A DNA stretch of 64,000 nt from an uncultured virus (IMG/VR IMGVR_UViG_2660238271_000001) (taxonomy: Duplodnaviria; Heunggongvirae; Uroviricota; Caudoviricetes). Below the pieces are notes generated by a model. The model saw nothing but the letters and a program-made list of their open reading frames with translations, was not told the origin of the DNA and did not search any database. Of this stretch, positions 49,622-64,000 are shown piece by piece; the stretch's first letter is position 1; each line of letters begins with the position of its first letter. The stretch is from the IMG/VR virus record IMGVR_UViG_2660238271_000001; one strand, written 5' to 3'. A program made the position numbers and the translations under genes.

Positions 49622-50017
49622 ATGAGCAAAAATTACACGCCGGAAAAGCGGGAGGAAATACAGCGCCGCATAACAGAACTGGTGCGGAAGCATGGCCGTA
49701 TGACGCTTACGGAGCTGAGGAGGATGACGGGGTTAACCATATATTCGACCCGTCACTACCTGGACAAGGCGGAACGTTGCGGGGATGTGTACCAGGCGGG
49801 CAAAAGGGGGATTTTTCCGTCGGAAGCGGCTTTTCGTGTCTGGTGTGAAAAGCAGTCTGACGCCAGAGTCGAGCGATTTCTGAAAACGCCGGAGCGCGTG
49901 GTGAAACCCTACGACAGGCATCAGAACACTATCTGTGCGGAATGCAGAAAAAGCGAGTACATGCAGCGGGTACTGGCATTTTACAGGGGAAATAACGGAG
50001 CAGTAAAAACGATATGA
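49622..50017 (+). CDS. DUF977-family protein
   Basis: Homologous to 10170-10565. Confidence 0.75.
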   Translation: MSKNYTPEKREEIQRRITELVRKHGRMTLTELRRMTGLTIYSTRHYLDKAERCGDVYQAGKRGIFPSEAAFRVWCEKQSDARVERFLKTPERVVKPYDRHQNTICAECRKSEYMQRVLAFYRGNNGAVKTI

Positions 50018-50304
50018 AGGTTTATATCGCAGGGCCGATGACAGGCTATGAAAATTTTAACCGTGAGGCATTTCACCGGGCGGAAAAAGCTCTGAAACGA
50101 GAAGGGCACACCGTATTAAATCCGGCAGTTCTCCCGAACGGATTAACGCAGGCGCAGTACATGGACATTTGCATGGCAATGATTCGTAGTGCAGATGCGA
50201 TTTACATGCTGTGGGGATGGCTGTGTTCGGCAGGCGCAAGGGCAGAACTGGCGCTGGCGGAAAAGCTGGGGCATGAGGTTATTTTTCAGGAGGTGATGCA
50301 GTGA
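50014..50304 (+). CDS. DUF4406-family protein
   Basis: VYIAGPMTG..FNREAF...VLNPA...SAGARAE. Confidence 0.8.
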   Translation: MKVYIAGPMTGYENFNREAFHRAEKALKREGHTVLNPAVLPNGLTQAQYMDICMAMIRSADAIYMLWGWLCSAGARAELALAEKLGHEVIFQEVMQ

Positions 50305-50591
50305 ATATCGATACAACAATAACGATTGATACCGCTTTGAATACTGGTCTGGCCCTGCTCGGTTGGTTTTATATCATGTTCAGTGCGGGGAAGTGGGCGG
50401 CATCTGTTTTTCTAAAGCAGTGGGAAAAGCGCCGCAAACAGACGCAGCAGCAGAAGGCAATGAATGCGTTTTTTGAGGCCTTCGATATCGACCGCATAGA
50501 GCCGGGAGAACCAACCCGCGTTATCCCCGTAGGTGATGTCGTGATTTTTGTATACCGGAGTGAAAAAAATGAACAGGAGGCGGCGCAGTGA
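50301..50591 (+). CDS. DUF4752-like membrane protein
   Basis: LNTGLALLGWFYIM. Confidence 0.65.
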   Translation: MNIDTTITIDTALNTGLALLGWFYIMFSAGKWAASVFLKQWEKRRKQTQQQKAMNAFFEAFDIDRIEPGEPTRVIPVGDVVIFVYRSEKNEQEAAQ

Positions 50592-50974
50592 GCAAAATTC
50601 ATAATCCCGTAGTGCTCATTAACAAGCCAGATAATAACGCTTGGGTCGTTGCTGTAACGGATGGTAGCCAGAATTATCAGGACGCCAGGCTAATGGCAAG
50701 CATGGAACTTGATATAACCGGGGATAGTGCTGATACATGGAGTCGTGTTGGTTTTTACATGGCGGCTGAAATTGAAGTGCTACGCCAACGCATCGCAGAA
50801 TTGACAGATGCACTTACGCAAATGATTAATGCGCATCAAACCACAATTCGTTTTGGTTATGAACGCATTACTGAATGTGGTGGTGACTGCGATTCGCCAG
50901 AAAAGATGATTTCAGAAGACCCGGATATCAGAATGGCAGAGGCTGTTTTGAGAGCGGGAATCAAATCTGAATAA
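50588..50974 (+). CDS. Hypothetical (Ead/Ea22-like C-terminus)
   Basis: Coupled ORF; GYERITECGGDCD. Confidence 0.55.
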   Translation: MSKIHNPVVLINKPDNNAWVVAVTDGSQNYQDARLMASMELDITGDSADTWSRVGFYMAAEIEVLRQRIAELTDALTQMINAHQTTIRFGYERITECGGDCDSPEKMISEDPDIRMAEAVLRAGIKSE

Positions 50975-51138
50975 TTAAATTCAGCACTGTAAATAAAAAT
51001 TAATCCTTAACCGGAGGGATTTCTGCACCCTCAATACATCAGGAGGCCNNNNNNNNNNNNNNNNNNNNCCCGAAAGGGCGGTAATGAAAAATGACTGAAT
51101 TAACCAAAGAGCAATTAGATGCTCAACGGAGGTAAATC

Positions 51139-51711
51139 GTGAAAGAGAATCAAATCCGAGAACTGGTAAACGAGCTGCGCGATATTGCTATTGAGTATCA
51201 CGGCACACAACAGTTACGTGAACGAATTGTACGCACAGTTCGCGACGCCCTGCATCATGACTTAGAAAAACTAAACCAACCTGTAAGCCAAACTTACGAG
51301 TTGCCACAAACGCAGTTTGAACAGGTTGCTGACCTCTACGAAATGCAATTTGATGATGGGCGCACCTGCGAATTCCACACAGATGGAGCAAAAGCTGCTC
51401 AGTGGTTGCTCGCATGCGATGGTAATAAGGTGCAGGAATACGTCAGGCTTGAGCGCTATCAGGAGGCTGTAATTGGCAACTCTCCGGTAATTCCGGATGG
51501 TTGGATAAGCTGTAGTATTGCCGTTCCAGTTGATTTTTGCGATGTGATTCTTCATGACGATCTCGGTAACGTATTTCCCGGTTTCTGGGATAAGGTTTTT
51601 TGTTCCATTCGTGGCGGGAATAAGATGACTTTTGTGGACAAAGACGGCGTAGAAGTAGAGAACGCAACCCACTGGATGCCGTTACCGGAACCGCCGCAGG
51701 AGGTGAAGTGA
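51139..51711 (+). CDS. DUF551-domain protein
   Basis: PDGWISCS...THWMPLPEPPQEVK. Confidence 0.8.
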   Translation: MKENQIRELVNELRDIAIEYHGTQQLRERIVRTVRDALHHDLEKLNQPVSQTYELPQTQFEQVADLYEMQFDDGRTCEFHTDGAKAAQWLLACDGNKVQEYVRLERYQEAVIGNSPVIPDGWISCSIAVPVDFCDVILHDDLGNVFPGFWDKVFCSIRGGNKMTFVDKDGVEVENATHWMPLPEPPQEVK

Positions 51712-52106
51712 TGGACGATAACAGCGATAACGTTATTCAACTGGTGCAGCCAAAATCAGAGGAGGAAGGGCTTCTCAACGTTGTGATAACCGACAGGAAA
51801 AGCGGCGAGCAAAAATGCTGTCAGCATATCCGTACAACAATTTCAGAAGTGAATCGTACGATTATCTGCAACCGGTGCGGATTGGCTTTAGATCCGTTCG
51901 GGCTTATTCTCGACCGTGCGAGAAACGGCGAAAACATCGTGTCTGAGATTAAATCACTCTATGCAAGACGGGATGCTCTTCGTGAATCTGTGGCAAAACT
52001 TGAACGCGAAGAGAAAAACGCAAAGGCGCGGCTGCGAGCAGCCAGGACTGCAATACTGTATGCGGAAAATGATCTTAAAAATATTGAGCAGGAGGTGAAT
52101 CAATGA
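51708..52106 (+). CDS. Hypothetical protein (CxxC plus coiled coil)
   Basis: CNRCG..LDPF. Confidence 0.65.
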   Translation: MMDDNSDNVIQLVQPKSEEEGLLNVVITDRKSGEQKCCQHIRTTISEVNRTIICNRCGLALDPFGLILDRARNGENIVSEIKSLYARRDALRESVAKLEREEKNAKARLRAARTAILYAENDLKNIEQEVNQ

Positions 52107-52186
52107 GCTGGCCTGATGCATTCGCAACGGCAGGAACCGCAATAGCGGCGGCGCTGGTGGTGTATTCGATTTGCCGTTGGGGATAA
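52103..52186 (+). CDS. 27-aa membrane peptide
   Basis: GGAGGT RBS, coupled start; MSWPDAFATAGTAIAAALVVYSICRWG. Confidence 0.5.
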   Translation: MSWPDAFATAGTAIAAALVVYSICRWG

Positions 52187-52393
52187 AAACGGTTTGCGGG
52201 AAAAGGAGAGTTAAGTAGAATTGTTGCGGGTGCTTGAGGCTGTCTGCCTTAAGCGCTTGCTGAGAGGTAGGCAGAGAAAAGCCCCAGTTAACATTACGCG
52301 TCCGGCAAGACGCTTAACATTAATCTGAGGCCCTATCTATGCGACACATAGAGATTAGCCTCTTACGTGCCGAAAGGCAAGGAGAAGCAGGCT

Positions 52394-52549
52394 ATGAAGC
52401 AGCAAAAGGCGATGTTAATCGCCCTGATCGTCATCTGTTTAACCGTCATTGTGACGGCACTGGTAACGAGGAAAGACCTCTGCGAGGTACGAATCCGAAC
52501 CGGCCAGACGGAGGTCGCTGTCTTCACAGTTTACGAACCTGAGGAGTAA
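52394..52549 (+). CDS. hok: Hok/Gef type I toxin (mok-like leader ORF and probable sok antisense upstream)
   Basis: MKQQKAMLIALIVICLTVIVTALVTRKDLCEVRIRTGQTEVAVF. Confidence 0.9.
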   Translation: MKQQKAMLIALIVICLTVIVTALVTRKDLCEVRIRTGQTEVAVFTVYEPEE

Positions 52550-52821
52550 GAGACCTGGNNNNNNNNNNNNNNNNNNNNNNNNNNNNNNNNNNNNNNNNNN
52601 NNNNNNNNNNNNNTTTTTTGTTACCCGTAAAATAAAAATTCATAAAAATGATCAACTTTCAGATTGGTTGCGCAACAAGTGAAAAATGTCCTTGTTGGTG
52701 AACATAAAATAAGCAAATTTATATAATGAAATAAATAGTCGCAGTGTTTATATTTCCCGCCTCAACAGAAATCGCGTTGAAATCGCACATTTTCATTTTT
52801 CCTTAGCTGTCAGGAGGCATT

Positions 52822-53016
52822 TTGAAAATCCCCACCAATTTAATACCAGGGTTTTATGAGAGTACACGGCCTGTCGTATTGTTCCGGAATAAGGATGGCA
52901 CATTCAAATCAGGGTTTGTACTGCGTGGCGATGAGTTCGTAGTGAATATTTCGTTGCTGAGGGACGGTTATAATTTTGCAGGGCTTTCAGTTGCCGGGCA
53001 TCCGAAACGATCGTAA
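52822..53016 (+). CDS. Hypothetical phage protein
   Basis: GGAGG RBS then TTG. Confidence 0.55.
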   Translation: MKIPTNLIPGFYESTRPVVLFRNKDGTFKSGFVLRGDEFVVNISLLRDGYNFAGLSVAGHPKRS

Positions 53017-53179
53017 AATTGCTGCCGACCTGAACAGTCTGCTGATTAACACCGTGCCACTGAGAAAATCTGATGGCACAGATAACCAATATCAAATTCC
53101 CCCTTACGCTGTCACTGCCTGCTGGCGGTGATGGCGTTTTGTCGTATCGGAACACCAGCCACCTTTGCGGAGGTGCTCA

Positions 53180-53380
53180 GTGAAAAAAAGCTGGTTCCAT
53201 TACCCGAATTGCACCACAGAAGAAGCCGAAGAGCTGATGGCGACCTATCGCCGTCGCGGTGTGAGGGTTGAGCGAAGCCTGAATTTCGACTGTCTCACAT
53301 GGACCATATCGGCACTGCTTCCTGAGTCTGCAAGAGCTCCGCGTCCGTCCCGTACTTATCAGCAGAGTTTCTGGAGGTAG
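53180..53380 (+). CDS. Conserved small nin-region protein
   Basis: Paralog of 15978-16172. Confidence 0.65.
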   Translation: MKKSWFHYPNCTTEEAEELMATYRRRGVRVERSLNFDCLTWTISALLPESARAPRPSRTYQQSFWR

Positions 53381-53381
53381 C

Positions 53382-54435
53382 GTGCGTGCATTACTGCGCC
53401 CTGCGTCTGTGCCGGAAATGGGAGTGGTGGTAATAAAGCCCGGCAGGGAGCTGATGCCGCTGTTTGCTGGTGGACGAGTGCTGGTGGAGCCGGAACCGGA
53501 AAGTATGAAGTCGCTGCCGTCAGGCGCGGNNNNNNNNNNNNNNNNNNNNNNNCCAGCCGCTGGCAGATGATAAATCGCTGCTTCCGTTTTTTACCAGTGA
53601 GCGTGTGATACATGCCGCCGGGGGCGTCGGGGCGCTGTCGGACTGGCTCCTGCGTCATGTTAAATCCTGCCAGTGGCCTCATGGTGATTACCACCACCAC
53701 GAAACGGTTATCCATCGTTACGGTGCCGGAGCGATGGTGTTGTGCTGGCACTGTGATAATCAGTTGCGTGACCAGACGTCTGAATCACAGGAACAACTGA
53801 CAAACCAGAATCTGATCACATGGCTGACTGATACCGTTCGTTACGCGATAAACGGTTCTCAGGAGCGGGAGCTGTCGCTTGCCGAATTGTGCTGGTGGGC
53901 AGTTTGTCATGATGTTGCCGGAGCCGTTCCGGATGGCGTGATTCGCCGTTCGCTGGGATTACCGGCTGAAGAAATCCGTTCCGTATACCGTGAAAGCGAT
54001 ATTGTGCCGGAAGAGCAGACCGCCACCAGCATTCTGAAGCAGCGCACAAAAAGTATTGTGCCGCAGCACCTCCACCAGCAACCAGTCCCTCAACAAAAAA
54101 GGGTGGTGCCCCTCACTGTCGATCCGGATTCACCGGAAAGCTTCATGCTGCGCCCGAAACGCCGTCGGTGGGTCAATGAGAGATATACCCGCTGGGTTAA
54201 GACACAGCCGTGTGTGTGCTGTGGTAAGCCAGCCGACGATCCCCATCACCTGATTGGTCACGGTCAGGGAGGGACAGGGACAAAAGCACACGACCTGTGG
54301 GTGTTGCCTTTGTGCAGAAAGCATCACGACGAGCTACATGCGCACCCGCTGTCATTTGAAGAGGAGTACGGCTCCCAGATTGACTTAATTTTTCGTTTTT
54401 TAGATTACGCGCTGGCAGTTGGTGTACTGGGATGA
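53382..54435 (+). CDS. DUF968-family protein (spans a gap)
   Basis: MRALLRP...CWHCDNQLR...CVCCGKPADDPHHLIGHG. Confidence 0.82.
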
Positions 54436-54446
54436 GGAGGTAAGGA

Positions 54447-54821
54447 GTGAAATCTGTTCAGTTTGTTTTACCGTATCCGCCGTCGGTGAACACGTACTGG
54501 CGTCGCCGGGGTTCGCAATATTACATCGCCGATACCGGAAAACGATACAGAAAAGACGTGGCTCACATTGTCCGTCAGTTGGGGTTGCGGATGAATCTGG
54601 CGGGAAGACTGGCGATAAAAATCATAGCAGATCCGCCGGATAATCGTCGTCGTGACCTGGATAACATACTGAAAGCGCCACTGGATGCGCTGACACATGC
54701 AGGCGTTCTTGTCGACGATGAGCAGTTTGATGAGATTCATATTGTACGGGGGCAATCATCGCCGGGCGGGCGGCTGGGGGTGAAGATTTACGAAATCACA
54801 GGTGATAGTAATGGCGCGTGA
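54447..54821 (+). CDS. rusA: RusA Holliday-junction resolvase
   Basis: [31 protein letters not shown]. Confidence 0.92.
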
Positions 54822-55197
54822 TATTCAGATGGTTCTGGAGCGGTGGGGGGCATGGGTGGCAAATAATCATGAGGATGTTGCCTGGTCGTCGATAGCCGCA
54901 GGGTTTAAGGGGCTTATCCCGTCGAAGGTGAAATCACGTCCGCAATGTTGTGACGATGACGCGATGATCATTTGCGGTTGTATGGCCCGCCTGAACAAAA
55001 ATAACAGCGATTTGCATGATTTGCTGGTGGATTATTACGTTGGCGGGATGACGTTTATGGCATTGGCGCGGAAGCATGGTTGTTCTGATGGGTACATAGG
55101 TAAAAAGTTGCAAAAAGCCGAAGGCGTGGTTGAGGGGATGTTAATGATGCTGGGTATCCGGCTGGAAATGGACAAACACGTCGAGCGAGGCATGTAG
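54811..55197 (+). CDS. Late antiterminator Q
   Basis: [13 protein letters not shown]...[10 protein letters not shown]...CCDDD. Confidence 0.88.
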
Positions 55198-55234
55198 GCG
55201 GTTGACCTGATGCATCGTCCGGGGCTATATTCTC

Positions 55235-55450
55235 CGCACGCCAGCAAAATCTGGCGTCGGGGGNNNNNNNNNGGGATTGGAACCCCGGACAAGAAACCGC
55301 GACAACGACACGCCGCGAGCGTGTTTTTTATTGTCGTATGCACTCGCACACCTGAATTATGGTGAGGCGTATGGGGCCGACTTCGGTCGGGCCGGTTGGT
55401 TTCTCCGGTAGTTCCAACCCTGTACGTCTCACCACCCGATGATTGGAACC
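55235..55450 (+). ncRNA. IsrK/C4-like structured antisense RNA module
   Basis: Promoter TTGACC..TATATT; CGCCAG..CTGGCG hairpin; GATTGGAACC boxes (55275, 55441) complementary to GTTCCAACC (55411); stem TGGTGAGGCGTA...TACGTCTCACCA. Confidence 0.65.
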
Positions 55451-55491
55451 TGACGGTGGTGATAATTAAGAAACCATTCAAGGGCGTCTTT

Positions 55492-56049
55492 ATGACCACT
55501 CAAATCTCTGTCGAAACTATTTCCCCGATTACCCATAACCAGATCCCTGTTATTACTACCGAGCTTTTGGCGCACCTTTACGGTACAGAACCAGTTCGCA
55601 TCCAGCAAAATCACAAACGCAACACTGATCGTTTTATAGAAGGGAAACACTTTTTCAAGGTCATGGGTGAGGAGCTAAAAATTTTGCGACTATCTTTAAG
55701 AGAGTCACAAATCTCTACCAAAACCCGTTCCCTAATCCTCTGGACAGAACGCGGCGCAGCCCGACACGCAAAAATGCTCGAGACTGAGCAGGCGTGGGAG
55801 GTGTTCGAAAAACTTGAGGACTGCTATTTCAATCCAAAATGCCCACCAGCAAAACATGAACCAATGATCGAAGGTGACGGGCGCACATTGCTAATCCACT
55901 TCGACGAACATGGAAACGTAGAGTTCACTGAAAAAGTTCCTAAGGATGCAATGGTATGCACTGCCGAACGGTTCAGGTTATACCTGGAACAACATGGCTG
56001 GATCGTTGCACGTAAAGAGCAATTGGTGGAAAGGCTGATGCGGCTTTAA
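55492..56049 (+). CDS. ORF6N-domain (antirepressor-like) protein
   Basis: VITTELLAHLYG...LILWTERGAARHAKMLET. Confidence 0.85.
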   Translation: MTTQISVETISPITHNQIPVITTELLAHLYGTEPVRIQQNHKRNTDRFIEGKHFFKVMGEELKILRLSLRESQISTKTRSLILWTERGAARHAKMLETEQAWEVFEKLEDCYFNPKCPPAKHEPMIEGDGRTLLIHFDEHGNVEFTEKVPKDAMVCTAERFRLYLEQHGWIVARKEQLVERLMRL

Positions 56050-56096
56050 GTACGGAAGCCCCNNNNCCCCGCCTTTATAGCGGGGCTGAATGCTCA

Positions 56097-56642
56097 TTAC
56101 TGAACTACTTTTAACCCACTAAATTTAAAAATATACTCTGGCTCTGTTACTTTACCATAGAGAGTCATGCTTGATTCAAGGATGCAGTCTTTTGAATTAG
56201 GGATAAAACGCCCTGAAAATGAAACCATATCACCAGGTTTTAAGTCAGAGGCTACTGAGAAAATTTCAGAGTCAGGGTTGATAAGAGTATGATGACTGGA
56301 ATCGGAGAAAGCGTTATTCCAGGTTTTAACTTCAATGTCTGGTGCTATCTCCAAAGCCAGCACACCGTAACCATCACTATTGGCGGAAACAGTTTTTACT
56401 GTACCAACCCAATTTTTAACTTTCTTGTCTTTGCTCAAAGTTTTGCAAACCGCCTTGTCTCGTTTTGCTTTTATTCCGCCCAACTTCATGTCGTTATCAA
56501 CGCCTTTAGCTGATGAAATTGCATTTGAGACTACCTCGATGAACTTTTCCTGCTGCTCAGGTATCTGGTAAGCAAAGGCTGGTGTCTGGAGGATAGTAGC
56601 TGTGCACGCGATGGCTATGATTTTTGTGAAAACACTATTCAT
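56097..56642 (-). CDS. Secreted AT-rich moron protein of unknown function
   Basis: Signal peptide, 181 aa, opposite strand to the phage genes. Confidence 0.75.
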   Translation of the reverse strand: MNSVFTKIIAIACTATILQTPAFAYQIPEQQEKFIEVVSNAISSAKGVDNDMKLGGIKAKRDKAVCKTLSKDKKVKNWVGTVKTVSANSDGYGVLALEIAPDIEVKTWNNAFSDSSHHTLINPDSEIFSVASDLKPGDMVSFSGRFIPNSKDCILESSMTLYGKVTEPEYIFKFSGLKVVQ

Positions 56643-56776
56643 ATTTGCACCTAAAACAAAAAAACTAATGAAACAAAAACGCCCAAGTTATGAGCGCGCT
56701 TAGATTACCCATCCCTCAAAACCTTATCAATAGTGTGAATTTGAGGTTGTATTGTTCATTAGGTTTGTTTGGGGGC

Positions 56777-56853
56777 TTTACGTACGTAAAAATCTGGATA
56801 TCCTGTTAAGAGTGGTTACTACGCCACACCGCTTAAACCCGCCATTGTGCGGG
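56777..56853 (+). promoter_or_regulatory. Probable late promoter pR' and tR' hairpin
   Basis: TTTACGTACGTAAAAATCTGGATATCCTGTTAAGAGTGG motif, then ACCCGC..GCGGG. Confidence 0.5.
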
Positions 56854-57039
56854 NNNNNNNNNNNNNNNNNNNNNNNNNNTTTTGTCGTTTCTGCAATACA
56901 GAAAGATATTCGCCAGTCCAATTTGGATTGTTAAACATGGTGTGTTTTAAATATGTTTTATGCACATTAAATTAATGTGAAATGTTTTGATAAAATAAAA
57001 ATACAATAATAACTTTACGTTCATTGACACAATGAATTG

Positions 57040-57729
57040 TTGAAACGCCTGTTCTGACTCGTATTATTTTCATCGGTCCGAAGGGGGTGATGGATAACCT
57101 TCTTCTGCCCCCGAGGATCAGAGAGCCGGTTTTTTTGTGCATCCTGGAAAATTCACGTGAAGGAACCGGCTCTCAACCAGAGAAGAAGAGGCGTTTTTTT
57201 CGATACAACTATCGTAATTACTCCGTTGGTGGTGCTGGCACGTAAAGTGTGGATAGTGCGTTTATGATGAGTGCATGATGTATATCCTGATACAGCATCC
57301 GGTTTGTGGGGGCGGAGAAGCCCCGATGGACTCAGTACCACAATTTTTTATTGCATTCAGATAGCGTACTGTGAATCGGATAAATGAGAATGTCAGTGTG
57401 TTGGTAATGCGGGGTTCTCAGTGCGCTATCTGAATGCAGTGAAATCTGCTCTGAGCAGAGCTAAACAGCATTGTCTGCGTTTGATCAATTTGTAGCGGGT
57501 CATAGTGGCTGACTAAAGACTCTCCGGGGCATCCCGGCACTGCATTTATTACTAAAAATCTTCATATCACAGAGGCAGAACATACGGAAAATTCTTGTCA
57601 ATACAACACCTGACACAGCAATATTTTTCGGGAGTCCCCGGTGCCTCAGGTTTTTTATCGCCATCAATAAAACTATAATAATAACTCCATGTTATGATTA
57701 CCACCTCTCTCATGAGGTGGTTTTTTTTT
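57040..57729 (+). ncRNA. Putative long structured ncRNA unit 1 (promoter to terminator)
   Basis: TTGAAA-16-TATTAT; series of stems; terminator ACCACCTC..GAGGTGG-T9; no credible ORF. Confidence 0.6.
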
Positions 57730-57867
57730 ATTCCCGCAAATTGCAGGAATAAGATGGAGTCATCAGAATATGCCCTGATTGTATTTTGTCTTTTTTGAAT
57801 TAATGCAAAACATTTGGAATAAATAAACATCTAATGATAAATTTACATTTCTTGACGCGACTGCTTG

Positions 57868-58520
57868 TTGAAATGAAATTTTTATGATTTATTATTGTCG
57901 ACAGTTTGGCGGAGGTGACTGGCAGATTTCTCCACTCCGTCGAATAAGAGAGTTGATTCTTTATACCTCCTGAGTCGTCTGATTAAAGAATCATCACTCG
58001 ATTTGGCATTAAGGTGAAATTAAGATTCCATTGATATAGGTATCGTTCTTACTCTTTGTGGTGCAGGCATATGGATATGGGGTGGTTACATTAATGTTCC
58101 TTTAATTTATCCTCCTGATTCGGAGTGAATCAGGCACCGCAATTTTTTTACTGCATTCAGATGGCGTATTGCAAAAAACGGTCATTACTTGTGCCACTGT
58201 CTGATGCTCTTGTAACACATACGGGATTTGTGGTACGCCATCTGAATGCAGTGAAACCCACATAAAGTGGGGCATAAACAGGATGTGAGGTGCGTTTATT
58301 TTCGTCTGCGGGTCATGGTGACTGACCAACGGCCCTCCGGAGATAATTCCGGCACTGCATTATTTATTGAGGTGTTCCCCAGTGCGGGGGTGACCGGGAA
58401 AAATGTTCTGCCGATGGTCACAGACACATACCGGGCTAATATGTGTTTTCGGGAGGCACCCGACACCTCTACTGTTTTTCCAGTCGATAACTATAAAACA
58501 TGCTTCAGATATTGAGCACC
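57868..58520 (+). ncRNA. Putative long structured ncRNA unit 2 (diverged tandem copy; 3' end in gap)
   Basis: Same promoter geometry and stem order as unit 1, with compensatory changes. Confidence 0.6.
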
Positions 58521-59003
58521 NNNNNNNNNNNNNNNNNNNNNNNNNNNNNNNNNNNNNNNNNNNNNNNNNNNNNNNNNNNNNNNNNNNNNNNNNNNNNNNN
58601 NNNNNNNNNNNNNNNNNNNNNNNNNNNNNNNNNNNNNNNNNNNNNNNNNNNNNNNNNNNNNNNNNNNNNNNNNNNNNNNNNNNNNNNNNNNNNNNNNNNN
58701 NNNNNNNNNNNNNNNNNNNNNNNNNNNNNNNNNNNNNNNNNNNNNNNNNNNNNNNNNNNAAAAATTTCAGGCATCCCTTTCGGGAGGTCGTCATTATTTT
58801 ACTGATAACAAAATAAGACCGGAACCCCGGAAACAACCTTATTTTCCGGTAAGGCTTATTTTATTCCCCGCGCCACGCCCGGCGCACATTCATAACTAAC
58901 CACGGAGCCTTTCAGGGGTGAGCTTACGGGATGGTCAGTGTGACTTTCTCTGTGGGCTGGTCACCCCCGGGCGCAGGCTCACCCACTAAAAGGAAAAGTC
59001 ACG

Positions 59004-59429
59004 ATGCTTGGTATTTTCAGAAAGAAAACCCGCAAGGCAATTGTTGAAGTGAAGAAGATGGAGAACCGGGATGCGGTGGAGGCGACCGTCTGGGGCGCAT
59101 ATTCCATTGCATACGCAGACGGCACCTGTGACGCGAAAGAAATTGCAGTGCTGGAGAAAACCATCGCGGCACTTCCTGCCTTTGCGTCGTTCTCCGGTGA
59201 GATTGCCCAGATGAGTGCAAACATTCGCGCCCGCTATGAGGCGTCACCGCGTAGCGCGAATGCTCAGGCACTGCGTGAGCTGGCTGATGTGGCAGGAACA
59301 GCAGAAGCGGTTGATGTGCTGTGCCTGTGTCTGGATATCGCAGACCAGGACGGCATCGGCCCGGATGAAGAGGCACAGCTCAAGAAAATTGCGCAGGCGC
59401 TGCAGTTACCGCTGGAGCAGTACCTGTGA
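59004..59429 (+). CDS. TerB-family protein
   Basis: IAYADGTCDAKE...DIADQDGIGPDEEAQLKKIAQAL. Confidence 0.8.
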   Translation: MLGIFRKKTRKAIVEVKKMENRDAVEATVWGAYSIAYADGTCDAKEIAVLEKTIAALPAFASFSGEIAQMSANIRARYEASPRSANAQALRELADVAGTAEAVDVLCLCLDIADQDGIGPDEEAQLKKIAQALQLPLEQYL

Positions 59430-59578
59430 AAAGTGCGCGCCCTGTGCTGGCTGCCGTCCTGCTGTTTCTGGTAGTGGCAGTGGATTTTACCGGGCGCCTG
59501 ATGTCGTTTCTGGCGGATGGCGTGCTGGTGGCTGGCGTGGTGGCGCTGGTGTGGCCGCTGCTGCGGGCGCAGAAATAA
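59426..59578 (+). CDS. Small two-TM protein (DUF3927-like)
   Basis: GTGA coupling to terB; VAVDFTGRLMSFLADG. Confidence 0.65.
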   Translation: MKSARPVLAAVLLFLVVAVDFTGRLMSFLADGVLVAGVVALVWPLLRAQK

Positions 59579-59667
59579 CATCACACAAAAGGCATCTGCG
59601 GGTGCCTTTGACGGGGTGTTGTTTTCACGGGCCGGTGATGGCCCTTTTTTATTGACGGGAGAAACAC

Positions 59668-60060
59668 ATGTCTGCTGAACCCTTATCCGGGACGGGCACG
59701 GCGGTGGCGCTCGGCGGGGCGACAGTATTCGGGCTGCTGACCAACACGGATTTCGGGATTGTTTTTGGCGCATTTGCAGGAGCGCTGTTTATTGTCACGG
59801 TGCCGAAAGAGCTGTCCCCCTGGCGGATGGCGGCGCATTTTCTGGTGTCATTTATCGTCGGCGTGCTGGGGGCGGGTGTACTGGCCTCGTTCCTGTCCCG
59901 CCTTGCTGACTACAACGGTAAACCGCTGGATGCGCTGTGTGCAGTGGTGATGTCGGTGCTGTCAGTGAAATTTCTGACCTTCATTCATGACCAGGACATT
60001 TCATCGCTGACCGGGGTTTTTTCACGGATGCGGGGAGGAGGGAGTGGTCATGGAAAGTAA
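59668..60060 (+). CDS. Putative holin
   Basis: Multi-TM; GIVFGAFAGALF. Confidence 0.78.
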   Translation: MSAEPLSGTGTAVALGGATVFGLLTNTDFGIVFGAFAGALFIVTVPKELSPWRMAAHFLVSFIVGVLGAGVLASFLSRLADYNGKPLDALCAVVMSVLSVKFLTFIHDQDISSLTGVFSRMRGGGSGHGK

Positions 60061-60331
60061 TCTGACCGGCACACTGAATGCGGGCCTGTGCCTGGTGACA
60101 GTGCTGGCCCTTTTTCTCTACCGCCGGAACGGCGCCAGATACAAACCGGGGATAGCCTGGCTGTCATACCTGCTGATGCTGGGTTATGCGCTGGTTCCGT
60201 TCCGTTTTCTGGCCGGACATTACCCGTCTTCATCCTGGCCTGTGGTGCTGATGAACGCGCTGTTCTGCGGGCTGGTGCTGTGGGCGCGGGGTAATGTGTC
60301 GAAAATACTTTCACTGCTGAGGCTGCGATGA
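60050..60331 (+). CDS. Holin-family protein
   Basis: 3 TM; YRRNGARYKP...ARGNVSKI. Confidence 0.78.
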   Translation: MESNLTGTLNAGLCLVTVLALFLYRRNGARYKPGIAWLSYLLMLGYALVPFRFLAGHYPSSSWPVVLMNALFCGLVLWARGNVSKILSLLRLR

Positions 60332-60906
60332 AACCGAAGAACGAAATTTTTGATGAAATTCTGGGTAAGGAAGGCGGCTACGTCAACCATCCGGACGATA
60401 AAGGCGGGCCGACAAAATGGGGTATTACGGAAAAAGTTGCCCGCGCCCACGGATACCGCGGTGATATGCGCAATTTAACCCGCGGACAGGCGCTGGAAAT
60501 TCTGGAGACCGACTACTGGTACGGTCCCCGCTTTGACCAGGTGGCGAAGGCCTCGCCGGATGTTGCCGCCGAACTGTGTGACACGGGCGTGAACATGGGG
60601 CCGTCGGTGGCGGCGAAAATGTTGCAGCGCTGGCTGAACGTGTTCAACCAGGGCGGGAAGCTGTATCCGGACATGGATACGGACGGGCGCATCGGGCCGA
60701 GAACCCTTAACGCGTTACGTGTTTATCTGGAAAAGCGCGGTAAGGATGGCGAGCGTGTACTGCTGGTGGCACTGAACTGCACGCAGGGAGAGCGCTATCT
60801 GGAGCTGGCGGAAAAGCGGGAGGCTAACGAGTCGTTTGTCTACGGCTGGATGAAAGAGCGCGTTTCTGTGCCTGTTTACAGTGAAGTCGGTAAATCTACT
60901 TTGTAG
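60328..60906 (+). CDS. GH108 endolysin with peptidoglycan-binding domain
   Basis: EGGYVNHPDDKGGPTKWGIT; DGRIGPRT. Confidence 0.92.
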   Translation: MKPKNEIFDEILGKEGGYVNHPDDKGGPTKWGITEKVARAHGYRGDMRNLTRGQALEILETDYWYGPRFDQVAKASPDVAAELCDTGVNMGPSVAAKMLQRWLNVFNQGGKLYPDMDTDGRIGPRTLNALRVYLEKRGKDGERVLLVALNCTQGERYLELAEKREANESFVYGWMKERVSVPVYSEVGKSTL

Positions 60907-61061
60907 CGAGTGCGGTATTAAACTCAACTGAAAAGCAAAACCCCGACTGCGGGAACAGGCCGGGGTTTTCAGTTTTCACGTCAAAGAGGAAATTGTGATC
61001 AGTGAGTACGGAAAAAATCCTCGTGGGAAAGTATAAAAGATTCTTTTTGAGGTTGTCCATT

Positions 61062-61175
61062 ATGAAAGGCATAGAAGTGGAAACTCCCGCGAGCCTTGAT
61101 CTGACGAGGGCGGCAGCCTTTGCAATTCGCCTTGTGGCGGTCGCTGTTCTGATTTGGGCTGTACGTTGGTGGTGA
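61062..61175 (+). CDS. 37-aa membrane peptide
   Basis: GAGG RBS; C-terminal TM ending RWW. Confidence 0.55.
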   Translation: MKGIEVETPASLDLTRAAAFAIRLVAVAVLIWAVRWW

Positions 61176-61176
61176 T

Positions 61177-61359
61177 ATGACGCGGAAACACTGGACACAC
61201 AGAATGCCGCGAATGGCGGCGAAATGGGCACTGGTAGCGATACTGGTGCCTTTTTTACTGGTGGGGTGCGCCAGCCTGGATAAGGCGCGCCAGATATTCG
61301 AAGCTGCCGGGCAGGTCTGCCGGATTATTGATGGTGTCCGGCAATGTGTGCAGAACTGA
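61177..61359 (+). CDS. Small lipoprotein
   Basis: Lipobox LLVGC. Confidence 0.65.
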   Translation: MTRKHWTHRMPRMAAKWALVAILVPFLLVGCASLDKARQIFEAAGQVCRIIDGVRQCVQN

Positions 61360-61573
61360 TCATGCATGTCAGCAGAATATTTTGCTGAGAAATGACAATG
61401 GCGCCGCTGTCCGGAAAGCATGAAATTCTGCTGCGTGCGATGTTTTTGAATAATAAATGCTGATTTCGATGTTCACGATTCAAATATCGATCACCGGTAT
61501 TACAGCAGCCCTTCAGTGAAGGGCTGCGATAATGCTGGTGGTCTGAATATCTCCATTGAAAACAGGAGGCGAA

Positions 61574-61921
61574 ATGTCTGAGCGAAACTATGAAGCAATT
61601 GGGCGCTGCGTTGTTCTGAGAAAGCGTATTGAAGAAAATCTTTGCGCCCTGCAGGAAATAAAATCGGAAATTATTTCTGCTGAATCTCCGTTTTTATTAG
61701 GTGAGCGGTTGCATGGTGGTTATTCACTGGTGTTGAGCATAGAAACGAATGCAAATCGCTGTCGTGAGTTACTTGATAGCACAATAAAGCTTGTCGATGA
61801 ACATAATCAGTATGCCGTGGCAGCGGGACTGGGTGCGATCTGTATCTTCCCCGAGGGAGAAGCGTTTAATAGCAAGAGAACGAAATTCCATGCCATCACG
61901 AATTCCCCGCGCCTGTCGTAA
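61574..61921 (+). CDS. Hypothetical protein
   Basis: GGAGG RBS; NYEAIGRC. Confidence 0.6.
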   Translation: MSERNYEAIGRCVVLRKRIEENLCALQEIKSEIISAESPFLLGERLHGGYSLVLSIETNANRCRELLDSTIKLVDEHNQYAVAAGLGAICIFPEGEAFNSKRTKFHAITNSPRLS

Positions 61922-62240
61922 GCGTGGATGTGCAGGCACAACAACAGACAGATCTGGCTACTGCGATAAACATCGTGGTGAAGGCTGGGCACAGCATCAG
62001 CGCGGACTGAGTCGCCACCAGCGTGGCTATGGCTCAAAATGGACAGTGATCCGTGCCCGTATTCTGAAGCGCGATAAAGGCCTGTGCCAGTTGTGCCTGC
62101 GTGCTGGTGTGGTAAGCGAGGCAAGAACCGTCGACCACATCATCCCGAAAGCGCATGGCGGTACGGATGCAGACAGTAATCTGCAGAGTCTGTGCTGGCC
62201 CTGCCACAAGGCGAAAACAGCGCGTGAACGCATCAACTGA
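61890..62240 (+). CDS. HNH endonuclease (terminase cofactor type)
   Basis: CQLC..VDHIIPKAHGG..NLQSLCWPCHKAKT. Confidence 0.9.
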   Translation: MPSRIPRACRKRGCAGTTTDRSGYCDKHRGEGWAQHQRGLSRHQRGYGSKWTVIRARILKRDKGLCQLCLRAGVVSEARTVDHIIPKAHGGTDADSNLQSLCWPCHKAKTARERIN

Positions 62241-62387
62241 TAATTGTTCTCACCTGTAAGGGAGGGGCGGGTCAAATCCCTGCAACCTGTGCCGTTCGGG
62301 ACCGCCCGCCTACCCTTCCTCGCATCGCCGCAGGTTTGAAAACTTTTTTTGGGAATGTGATTAAATGATTGATAGGTAAAATCGATT

Positions 62388-62885
62388 ATGTCAGGACCTC
62401 AGAAAACCCCGCCACGCCTGCATTTGATTCGGGGTAACCCCTCAAAACGCCCCGTTAAAGCCCCCAAAAAAACCGCTAAAAAGGATGAAAAAGGTCTCCC
62501 TAAAATTCCGCAACATTTAGGGGCGCAGGGGAAGTACTGGTTCAGGCGAATGGCGGAAGAACTGGATGCGGAAGGGATCATTTCTCAGCTCGATGCCCGG
62601 GCGCTTGAGTTACTGGTGGAAGCCTACACCGAATACCGGCATCACTGCGAAATACTCGATGTTGAGGGATATACCTACCGCACTGAGACGCAGAACGGCG
62701 ATGTGATGATCAAGGCACACCCGGCTGCGGCAATGAAAGCGGATGCCTGGAAGCGAATCCGGGCGATGCTTGCAGAATTTGGTATGTCGCCAGCGAGCCG
62801 GGCCAAAGTGAATACCTCTGGGCCGGATGATATTGATCCGCTGGCGGNNNNNNNNNNGGCGGAGATTTTAAAAGCGAGAGACTGA
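62388..62885 (+). CDS. Terminase small subunit, P27 family
   Basis: LIRGNPSKRP; HPA...EFGMSPASR. Confidence 0.9.
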   Translation: MSGPQKTPPRLHLIRGNPSKRPVKAPKKTAKKDEKGLPKIPQHLGAQGKYWFRRMAEELDAEGIISQLDARALELLVEAYTEYRHHCEILDVEGYTYRTETQNGDVMIKAHPAAAMKADAWKRIRAMLAEFGMSPASRAKVNTSGPDDIDPLAXXXXAEILKARD

Positions 62886-64000
62886 TGGCAAAAGTGGCTG
62901 ACGGGATACGCTACGCCGAACGTGTTGTTGCAGGAGAGATTGTTGCCGGCGAATTTGTCCATCTGGCGTGCCAGCGTTTCCTGGATGATCTGAAGTATGG
63001 CGAAGAGCGGGGGATTTATTTCAGTGAGCCCCGCGCACAGCACATCCTGAATTTCTATAAATTTGTGCCCCATGTGAAAGGGGCGCTGGCAGGCCAGCCA
63101 ATTGAACTCATGGACTGGCATGTATTTATCCTCATCAATATTTTTGGTTTTGTTATTCCGCTGGTTAATGAAGAGACCGGGGAAGTGGTCATGCGCAGCG
63201 ATGGCAGCGGACGCCCGGTGATGGTGCGTCGGTTCCGGACGGCATACAACGAAGTCGCCCGTAAAAATGCAAAATCAACGCTGTCATCGGGTATCGGTCT
63301 GTATATGACCGGGGCGGATGGTGAAGGCGGGGCTGAGGTGTATTCAGCCGCAACCACACGCGACCAGGCCAGAATCGTGTTTGAAGACGCCAAAAATATG
63401 GTCAGAAAAGCCCGGTCAACACTCGGGCGGTTGTTTGATTTCAACAAGCTGGCAATTTACCAGGAGCAGAGCGCATCGAAATTTGAGCCGCTTTCCTCGG
63501 ATGCAAATAACCTGGACGGTCTGAACATCCACTGCGCCATTATCGATGAGCTGCATGCACATAAAACCCGTGATGTGTGGGACGTTCTGGAAACGGCGAC
63601 CGGCGCCCGTCTGCAGTCCCTGTTATTCGGTATTACCACGGCAGGCTTTAACAAGGAGGGGATTTGTTACGAGCAGCGTGATTACGCCATCAAGGTGCTG
63701 CGAGGCTATAACAGCGATGTGGAAGGCGCGGTAAAAGACGACTCCTACTTTGCGATCATTTACACGCTCGATGAAGGGGATGACCCGTTTGATGAAACGG
63801 TCTGGCAGAAAGCGAATCCCGGCCTGGGCATCTGTAAACGCTGGGATGATCTGCGTCGTCTGGCGAAAAAAGCGAAGGAGCAGGTTTCTGCGCGGGTGAA
63901 TTTTTTTACCAAGCACATGAATGTGTGGGTCACTGCCGAATCTGCCTGGATGGATATGATTAAGTGGGAGAAGTGCGAATACATCGCTCCACAGCATGAG
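62885..64000 (+). CDS. Terminase large subunit (partial, runs off window)
   Basis: Read manually: MAKVADGIRYAE...VARKNAKST...IIDELHAH...ITTAG. Confidence 0.93.
   Translation, partial: MAKVADGIRYAERVVAGEIVAGEFVHLACQRFLDDLKYGEERGIYFSEPRAQHILNFYKFVPHVKGALAGQPIELMDWHVFILINIFGFVIPLVNEETGEVVMRSDGSGRPVMVRRFRTAYNEVARKNAKSTLSSGIGLYMTGADGEGGAEVYSAATTRDQARIVFEDAKNMVRKARSTLGRLFDFNKLAIYQEQSASKFEPLSSDANNLDGLNIHCAIIDELHAHKTRDVWDVLETATGARLQSLLFGITTAGFNKEGICYEQRDYAIKVLRGYNSDVEGAVKDDSYFAIIYTLDEGDDPFDETVWQKANPGLGICKRWDDLRRLAKKAKEQVSARVNFFTKHMNVWVTAESAWMDMIKWEKCEYIAPQHE

Follow-up and report, generated by a model that had tools for sequence, protein, structure and literature searches.

The interval between the antiterminator gene Q and the holin gene of lambdoid prophages is where Shiga and LT-II toxins and several regulatory small RNAs (sRNAs) reside. 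Such an interval is described here in an uncultured virus of the Caudoviricetes (IMG/VR record IMGVR_UViG_2660238271_000001); the whole stretch of DNA analyzed, 64,000 nucleotides (nt) long, is called the window. Positions 56886-58520 of the window are occupied by two colinear noncoding promoter-to-terminator units, back to back, upstream of the prophage lysis genes. Prophage sRNAs, phage tRNA operons behind the terminator tR', and the STnc100 and PasD RNAs are already known; the composite unit, its covarying center, the exchange of tRNAs for another RNA, the diverged tandem pair and a strand with two partners were not found in a limited literature search. Documented below are the anatomy and strand of the units, their two 5' ends, their high expression relative to the flanking late genes, their covariation, and the homology of the cassette modules. 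By analogy with other prophage RNAs, it is probable (roughly 0.6) that the units are lysogen-expressed multi-RNA precursors that are cut into smaller RNAs whose products act in trans.

Among described systems, one close counterpart is the tRNA operon that Shiga toxin (Stx) phages and other lambdoid phages carry after tR'. A tRNA promoter downstream of tR' has been mapped by differential RNA sequencing (PMC7547250, in excerpt). The window units share the site, the orientation and the separate promoter after tR', and their relatives have tRNA-Thr and tRNA-Gly downstream of a promoter and leader that are homologous. They differ in that both window units are without tRNA and a structured trailer of ~400-520 nt follows the tRNA position. 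StxS and the lambda 6S RNA resemble the units as abundant short noncoding RNAs of the lysogen at the head of the late operon, with terminators that are overridden by Q. Those RNAs, however, start at the Q-dependent promoter PR', whereas the window units start at a separate promoter that is shared across Q types.

The prophage sRNAs of this moron region are Hfq-bound regulators, according to the available portions of PMC4104026, PMC8550237 and preprint 10.64898/2026.05.13.724894. The anti-sRNAs AgvB and AsxR of enterohemorrhagic Escherichia coli prophages lie, like the units, in the moron region downstream of PR', and their short AU-rich 5' part with a terminator is like the tail of unit 1. On that tail the AgvB covariance model (CM; RF02702) scores 21.9 bits against a cut-off of 56, and the GcvB-mimic motif CACAACA of AgvB occurs in none of the five window-type units.

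ROOL and GOLLD are large structured noncoding RNAs found in prophages, often beside tRNAs. Their host group is different from that of the window, and neither gave an Rfam match at E values up to 1 (14 kb searched) or up to 5 (1.5 kb).

Two Units behind a Separate Late Promoter

The window contains runs of N, and a public provirus contig (L004) that is 99.9% identical across the whole region was used to read through them. A consensus scan of L004 finds exactly two promoters scoring 10 of 12, both TTGAAA-16-TATTAT, which correspond to window 57040-57067 and 57868-57895. The units behind them align in colinear blocks with 74% mean column identity (MAFFT, 56885-57760 against 57740-58520), in agreement with a first-pass annotation, made from the sequence alone, that had described two colinear units with promoters of identical geometry. 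An 18-nt arm motif is present in four copies, one inverted pair per unit, where 0.07 copies are expected; none of 100 shuffled sequences held four. Three terminators are found on the + strand of L004: a tR'-like hairpin before unit 1 (L004 2010-2031), one at the end of unit 1 and one at the end of unit 2. The scan upholds the earlier view that unit 1 closes in a strong terminator (57700-57729) and that unit 2 ends within the gap, a 239-N run at 58521-58759 for which the L004 counterpart is the strong intrinsic terminator of unit 2 followed by ~150 nt of spacer.

The late promoter itself can be placed by homology. The window Q shares 83% identity with its counterpart in the Stx1 phage H-19B. 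Directly behind the H-19B gene stand TTTACG-16-TATCAT, a short leader and a hairpin with its T run; this DNA and window 56777-56855 are 82% identical. A provirus (L027) with a Q 88% identical to the window Q has the same post-Q element behind it. Loci with a DUF1133-type Q (L015, L037) carry another post-Q sequence, yet share both the hairpin and the unit promoter that follows it. Because of this linkage in H-19B and L027, and because the unit promoter also stands in DUF1133-type loci, PR' (TTTACG-16-TATCCT), its short leader and the first, tR'-like terminator are assigned to about 56778-56885 on the + strand, an interval interrupted by a 26-N run. The units start after it, 220 and 1050 nt past the H-19B-type element, as expected from the placement between PR' and the lysis genes that had been proposed. 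The alternative that the unit promoter is PR' was rejected, since the homologue of H-19B PR'/tR' is separate and upstream and the unit promoter is common to different Q types. PR' is constitutive and is terminated in lysogens, as stated in the excerpted StxS paper (PMC7547250). Inserted genes amounting to ~1.6 kb stand between the window PR'-tR' element, homologous to the H-19B StxS locus, and its Q gene.

Transcription in Lysogens

Seven RNA-library runs from three studies contain the locus; one run per study and one raw-read run were aligned to L004. The sequenced strains have a different upstream flank, and the left-hand genes are beyond the reach of these data. In run X1 a 1877-nt contig with a depth of 2635 spans L004 2010-3811, that is, just both units, against depths of 0-13 for the flanking TerB and holin contigs, and in X7 the unit contig has a depth of 263 against 10 in the flank. 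The unit contigs are 25-200 times deeper than those of neighboring genes in two of the three studies, and in two transcriptome studies both units rank among the most abundant RNA contigs.

Run X16 consists of raw stranded reads; 6% of the run was read, and 920 reads were placed on L004. Judged from the depths of the bins, the first mate maps to the minus strand in nearly all of them; under the usual library convention this denotes + strand RNA. The reads fall almost wholly within L004 2041-3740, the bins beyond being below 1x. Twenty-six molecule ends lie at L004 2224, or window 57075, 8 nt past the -10 element. For unit 2, 99 and 18 reads with non-templated 5' letters start at L004 3050 and 3047, or window ~57903 and ~57900. 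The ends at 57075 and about 57903 are within 1 nt of the positions, 57074 and 57902, that had been predicted from the sequence. Transcription of both units on the + strand from the predicted promoters in lysogens is supported by these data; the independent transcription and lysogen expression foreseen in the first-pass annotation are seen in the X16 ends and in the X1 and X7 depths, with X5 flat.

Coverage along the units is uneven. Successive bins of unit 1 reach 79x (the 5' module, the highest within unit 1), 31x, 18x and 3x, and those of unit 2 reach 488x (the 5' module), 18x, 60x and 9x, which makes the 5' module of unit 2 the RNA of highest abundance. Adapter read-through at L004 3165, 3187 and 3189 indicates a discrete 5' RNA of unit 2, ~116-140 nt long and starting at the transcription start site, and six molecule ends fall at L004 2790, within the closing domain of unit 1. 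Both the unevenness of the coverage and this discrete 5' RNA point to a precursor that is cut into stable small RNAs, which fits the multi-sRNA precursor suggested earlier. In unit 2 only, a promoter-like site scoring 9 of 12 lies at L004 3465-3494, where coverage rises from 18x to 60x; by eye it is not conserved in unit 1 or in unit 3, the third unit type of the comparisons below.

Modules and Covariation

Each unit appears to be a self-contained noncoding RNA operon, or 'RNA moron', situated after PR'-tR' and before the TerB, holin and endolysin genes. Its transcript, ~650 nt long and made up of four modules, comes from a constitutive sigma-70 promoter that has an AT-rich stretch ahead of it. 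In unit 1 the upstream region and promoter span 56886-57074 (-35 TTGAAA at 57040-57045, -10 TATTAT at 57062-57067) and in unit 2 they span 57739-57902 (-35 TTGAAA at 57868-57873, -10 TATTAT at 57890-57895), all features of both units being on the + strand. The upstream leader of unit 1 is kept at 72-79% in many E. coli-type loci.

The first module is a hairpin RNA of ~130 nt, unrelated to the tRNA-Thr(UGU) and tRNA-Gly(UCC) that related prophages carry at this place. In unit 1 (57075-57205) it comprises three predicted hairpins, including GAGAGCCGGUU/AACCGGCUCUC (fold z -4.0), and is tRNA-less; in unit 2 (57903-58042) it holds a hairpin GGCGGAG/CUCCGUC and a long hairpin GAUUCUUUA/UAAAGAAUC with a CCUCC-containing loop, and its predicted fold is no better than shuffles (z -0.45). 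ARAGORN finds no tRNA in window 50000-64000 and none in L004.

The second module is a covarying center of ~300 nt, located by fold and covariation at 57206-57552 in unit 1 and 58043-58365 in unit 2. It is composed of a helix (H1), a long hairpin (57346-57444, z -7.7; 58146-58256, z -5.9) and a four-arm subdomain that appears in an alternative fold (57431-57549; 58245-58361). At its core is a duplex of 26-30 base pairs (bp), the 3' strand of which could alternatively close the four-arm subdomain, through AAUGCAGUG/CACUGCAUU in unit 1.

The third module, a closing domain, would be distantly related to the Hfq-associated STnc100/PasD RNAs. In unit 1, where it was delimited by alignment with units 2 and 3, it occupies 57553-57656 and runs into a T run; GAGGCA at 57572-57577 pairs with UGCCUC at 57642-57647 around an inner UUCGGGAGUCCCCGG hairpin. 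In unit 2 it begins at 58348, reads GAGGUG...CCCC-AGUGC-GGGG...UUCGGGAGGCACCCGA...CACCUC, and continues past 58520 into the N run. The fourth module is an AU-rich tail with an intrinsic terminator, at 57657-57738 in unit 1 (stem 57700-57721, T run to 57730); the tail sequence AACUAUAA is found in four of the five family members.

Against shuffled sequences the whole-unit folds have z scores of -7.6 (unit 1) and -6.1 (unit 2). Across the three unit types, double changes occur at 23 of 125 pairs, against 2-8 in slid controls. Five window-type sequences with a mean identity of 64% give a consensus fold of 100 pairs with 94.5% of cells paired, in which 33 pairs have changed on both sides, against 13.2 +/- 2.6 in shuffled alignments (0 of 500 reach 33) and 1-7 in slid ones. 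Nine E. coli domains show the same tendency, with double changes at 24 of 94 pairs against 4-7 in controls. These figures support the predicted folds, though they do not prove them, and they bear out the observation, made in the first-pass annotation, that pairing is kept while the primary sequence changes. The stems listed there are present; GGTCA..TGACY, however, is better represented by two helices, one inside the other: GGGUC/GRCYC and UGGU/ACCA. The E. coli-type and window-type domains share H1 (by inspection only), a U-rich linker, the long hairpin (likewise by inspection) and the closing domain, and the window type has the four-arm subdomain, ~115 nt, in addition.

An unusual feature of the center is a strand that may pair in two ways. 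The 3' arm of the long hairpin has the string AAUGCAGUGA at its base, and GCACUGCAU stands after the four-arm subdomain; both are invariant in all five sequences, and the 5'-arm partner varies. Folding without the 5' arm yields, in four of four sequences tested, a predicted structure in which the four arms are closed by this helix. Because the arm-less folds close the four arms with it, AAUGCAGUG appears to have two mutually exclusive partners. Since neither string ever varies, covariation cannot choose between the two folds.

The longest open frames vary in strand and frame across the five family members, as would follow from the earlier statement that no credible open reading frame (ORF) is present, and no ORF is conserved; of the seven insertions or deletions that distinguish units 2 and 3, none has a length divisible by three; and four ORFs tested in the region have no PHROG family. 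On these three grounds a coding or decayed gene was rejected. Rfam searches over 14 kb (E up to 1) and 1.5 kb (E up to 5) gave no family at threshold for the units. For them the permissive output contained only chance-level microRNA-type matches on the long hairpin and sub-threshold matches to STnc100 and AgvB.

A Modular tRNA/RNA Cassette

The window-type domain is rare. Pattern scans detect the two-unit locus in four viral contigs at 98-99.9% identity, and a single-unit form, in which the 3' two-thirds are 79% identical to unit 2 and the leader is unit-1-like, in three loci (L007, L014, L015). The whole region has no match among 50,697 phage records (BLAST, distant mode) or 5,426 E. coli genomes (near mode). 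In the distant mode unit 2 finds only short pieces in 71 of these genomes, at 13% cover or less. The nearest genome and the nearest virus record both lack a match, as do five genomes of the nearest genus. Another locus (L027), the third prophage in one genome, is a copy of the single-unit form at 97% and lacks a part of the long hairpin's 5' arm (on the reverse complement, about 2340-2360). The gene following this unit is for a DNA methyltransferase, in place of TerB.

The nature of the units is seen from their relatives. In the three single-unit loci, with the anticodons UGU and UCC, and in two divergent ones (L085, L094), the promoter is followed by tRNA-Thr and tRNA-Gly at the position of the window 5' module, and then by a window-type domain. 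Through the tRNA pair and leader the E. coli phage vB_EcoS-683R6 was reached. There Q is followed by the post-Q hairpin and a homologous promoter, then by tRNA-Thr and tRNA-Gly, a noncoding stretch of ~390 nt, and last a terminator and the holin gene. The 394-nt stretch of this phage matches 435 of the 5426 complete E. coli genomes at 70-100% identity, with at least 80% cover in 220, at up to five places per genome; 39 of the places are on plasmids, and two phage records match as well. In ten E. coli loci that were read, the domain lies 3' of the tRNAs (Thr-Gly, at times with Ile, Arg, Lys or Met ahead) and 5' of TerB, DUF3927 or holin genes. RefSeq leaves it unannotated there or assigns a short hypothetical protein. 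Such proteins overlie the domain at L037 3166-3483, L042 1687-2100 and L047 1613-1873; they show no conservation from locus to locus and are likely to be spurious.

A motif scan for the closing domain in viral contigs returned 96 stretches, of which 80 were taken, giving 75 unique extracts: 62 are E. coli-type, 4 contain the closing domain only, and 9 are window type, 7 of these from contigs already seen and 2 being the new, divergent L085 and L094. The same scan of genome contigs gave one match, in Escherichia ruysiae. Tandem E. coli-type units are present in L073 (at 1301 and 2067) and L082 (1301 and 2075), 766 and 774 nt apart; in both, the first unit is without tRNA and the second has tRNA-Thr and tRNA-Gly. 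Since these two loci show both, neither the tandem nor the tRNA-less form is unique to the window.

Judged by this homology, the window units are tRNA-less versions of a widespread phage cassette of tRNAs and small RNA, in a region that is mosaic and recombining. The claim that the units cannot be assigned to a named family holds to the extent that no Rfam family is matched at threshold; it does not extend to the end of unit 2, which is distantly STnc100/PasD-like, or to the whole unit, which looks like a tRNA cassette lacking its tRNAs. The comparison suggests that many features of the Q-to-holin interval belong to one modular, separately promoted cassette, consisting of a promoter, tRNAs or another RNA, a center and an STnc100/PasD-like end. 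About 8% of complete E. coli genomes contain a ~400-nt form of the cassette that has no annotation. The window would then constitute a natural experiment, with two diverged tandem copies in which the tRNAs have been swapped for another RNA.

In the excerpt of PMC12370729, STnc100 lies 75 nt downstream of stx2 in Stx2 phages, which fits cargo sitting between the tRNAs and the 3' domain. A phage fragment named for LT-IIb enterotoxin (KU052038.1) has the E. coli-type domain at two places. Together, the fragment and the position of STnc100 just after stx2 suggest that toxin genes insert within such cassettes. Downstream of one E. coli unit, L045 1860-2100 contains a StxS-like terminator element and a fragment like the 3' end of tmRNA (15.7 bits, E 0.018) that may be the remnant of an attachment site.

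The 3' Domain and STnc100/PasD

PasD of enteropathogenic E. coli is a structural relative of STnc100, as described in part of preprint 10.64898/2026.05.13.724894. It is Hfq-associated and trans-acting by RIL-seq (ligation and sequencing of interacting RNAs) and by Northern blots (PMC8550237, in excerpt). STnc100 (RF02076), PasD1 and PasD2 (= EcOnc13) occupy the late region of lambdoid prophages between Q and holin, as do the units. The features held in common are a UGGUG-type closing strand, a C-rich/G-rich hairpin with a GUGCG loop, an CGGGAGGCACCCG hairpin, a closing CACC strand, an AU-rich tail and a terminator. PasD has its own promoter right at the core, a position for which unit 2 offers the promoter-like site described above; the window domain stands at the 3' end of a transcript of ~650 nt, behind two further modules.

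A nucleotide profile (nhmmer) built from the nine E. coli domains only matches the end of unit 2 (L004 3516-3696, E 1e-17; window 58369-58479, E 2.2e-11) and also that of unit 3. Unit 1, PasD2 and the 5' two-thirds of either window unit give no match to it. The STnc100 CM aligns full-length and colinearly with unit 2, read through L004, at 21.8 bits (cut-off 47; E 0.0065 in a 281-nt search). On E. coli-type loci it scores 22.9-35.5 bits, also below 47, and in all nine loci give full-length colinear alignments at 21.8-35.5 bits. PasD2 itself, taken from the Table S6 coordinates of PMC8550237, reaches 41.4 bits and so lies below the cut-off too. The order of STnc100 motifs is kept in unit 2, from the closing helix through the C/G hairpin, the GGGAGGCACCC hairpin and the tail to the terminator, and unit 1 retains only the closing helix and a variant inner hairpin. 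On this homology the last ~200 nt of unit 2 are a distant, sub-threshold relative of the STnc100/PasD prophage sRNAs, and the closing domain of unit 1 is, by its alignment, a diverged counterpart of the STnc100-like domain. It is possible that published sRNAs such as STnc100 are 3' ends of longer tRNA-linked precursors.

A Precursor Model and Its Alternatives

In the scheme favored here, RNase III would cleave the primary transcript at the long duplex, and RNase E or P-type cleavage would separate the modules at their borders. The resulting RNAs, chiefly the 5' module and the STnc100-like 3' part, would base-pair in trans in the lysogen, as PasD, AgvB and StxS of the same prophage region do (PMC8550237, PMC4104026 and PMC7547250, in the portions available). 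In lytic growth, polymerase modified by Q would transcribe across both units. In relatives the tRNA borders fall at the module borders, and the 26-30 bp duplex is an obvious substrate for RNase III.

Several points count against this model. Processing enzymes, Hfq binding and targets of the unit RNAs are proposed by analogy. The PasD seed CCU(U)GUGAG, complementary to the target motif CUCACAGG, is present in none of the five window-type units, and neither is an AgvB-type seed. The STnc100 match of unit 2 is well under the gathering score, and unit 1 has no full-length match, only a partial one of 18.4 bits elsewhere in the unit. As to expression, contigs cannot prove transcription, the 5' ends come from one run read under the usual strand convention, and X5, one of the three contig runs, has a flat depth of 10.3 with zero enrichment. 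The pair counts were made on the same alignments from which the structures were predicted, the sequences are kin, and for the window-type domain there are only five of them. Among 401 genomes of the family, two short matches of chance size were found (39 and 21 nt; E 1.4e-4 and 8.6e-4), and a 26-base gapped pattern has no match in species-representative genomes or metagenome contigs. In L027 a part of the long hairpin's 5' arm is missing, and from this deletion the center domain may be dispensable.

A different role for the center is a minor, rather unlikely possibility. It may belong to a new class of large phage RNAs that are structured, move together with phage tRNAs and have a function beyond base-pairing regulation. 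On that model it would be a bistable element in which the invariant AAUGCAGUG either lies in the base of the duplex or closes the four-arm domain with CACUGCAUU, and it might serve, for example, as a processing-triggered switch, as a decoy for host nucleases directed at tRNA or double-stranded RNA, or as an assembling scaffold. The proposal that the center is a large RNA with its own job in a ROOL/GOLLD-like context, whether as scaffold, protein or nuclease decoy, or self-assembling RNA, with the two AAUGCAGUG folds acting as a switch, is unlikely. Its size, strong fold, covariation in a third of the 100 pairs and very high expression would suit such an RNA, as would the tRNAs immediately upstream in relatives, the two complementary strings of 9-10 nt that stay invariant in five of five sequences at 64% overall identity, and the closed four-arm fold in four of four. 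But no ROOL, GOLLD or other large-RNA family is matched at E values up to 1-5, and there is no evidence of self-assembly; the E. coli form lacks the four-arm subdomain; the alternative helix is invariant, so that covariation gives no test of it; and the center is the least covered part in X16.

It is decidedly unlikely that the units act chiefly in cis, as a late-operon leader that silences the lysis genes in the lysogen and shapes processing or stability of the Q-antiterminated mRNA, with the short RNAs as by-products. The position and orientation between PR'/tR' and holin are fixed in all loci read, three strong + strand terminators stand within 1.7 kb, and depth past unit 2 is below 1x, all of which an insulating leader would explain. 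Insulation, however, needs no strong promoters directed toward the lysis genes, no tRNAs and no covarying domain of 300 nt. The units also have their own conserved promoter, and the related PasD and STnc100 are trans-acting and Hfq-bound (PMC8550237, in excerpt).

Very improbable is the view that the units are what is left of duplicated phage tRNA operons in decay, transcribed through a surviving promoter and without selected function. It would account for tRNAs that are missing from both units and present in relatives, for the narrow distribution, for the one deleted copy and for the mosaic character of the region. Against it, compensatory changes keep 94.5% of cells paired at 64% identity, and the two units have diverged to 74% identity yet retain every helix, with promoters and terminators intact. 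That the inverted repeats act as DNA, as protein-binding or recombination sites, or that the region is a decayed protein-coding gene, is hardly credible: the repeats are long and their arms conserved, and the annotation pipeline PGAP places short hypothetical proteins over the E. coli counterpart, but G-U pairs and strand-specific covariation fit RNA, the transcripts are strand-specific with defined ends, and the frames, indels and PHROG searches discussed above speak against coding.

Neighboring Genes

The antiterminator gene Q, of H-19B type, is at 54802-55197 and is followed at 55225-56049 by an antirepressor module controlled by isrK/C4. This is a P1-type immunity module directly after Q, with a c4-a1b1/isrK match of 57.6 bits, a C4 antisense RNA of 76.2 bits and a gene for an ORF6N antirepressor. 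An orphan ORF of 181 amino acids, inserted on the minus strand (56097-56642), separates this gene from PR'; its N terminus is hydrophobic and like a signal peptide, and it has no Pfam or PHROG family. Beyond the units, a TerB-like gene (59004-59429) is followed by two holins and then by endolysin (60328-60906). In the early region of the prophage, a sok antitoxin RNA at 52228-52399 (Rfam, 105.6 bits) implies a toxin-antitoxin locus of hok/sok type.

The N runs of the window, at 55264-55272, 56063-56066, 56855-56880 and 58521-58759, differ in length from L004, which has zero extra bases in place of the 26 N and about 175 bases in place of the 239 N.

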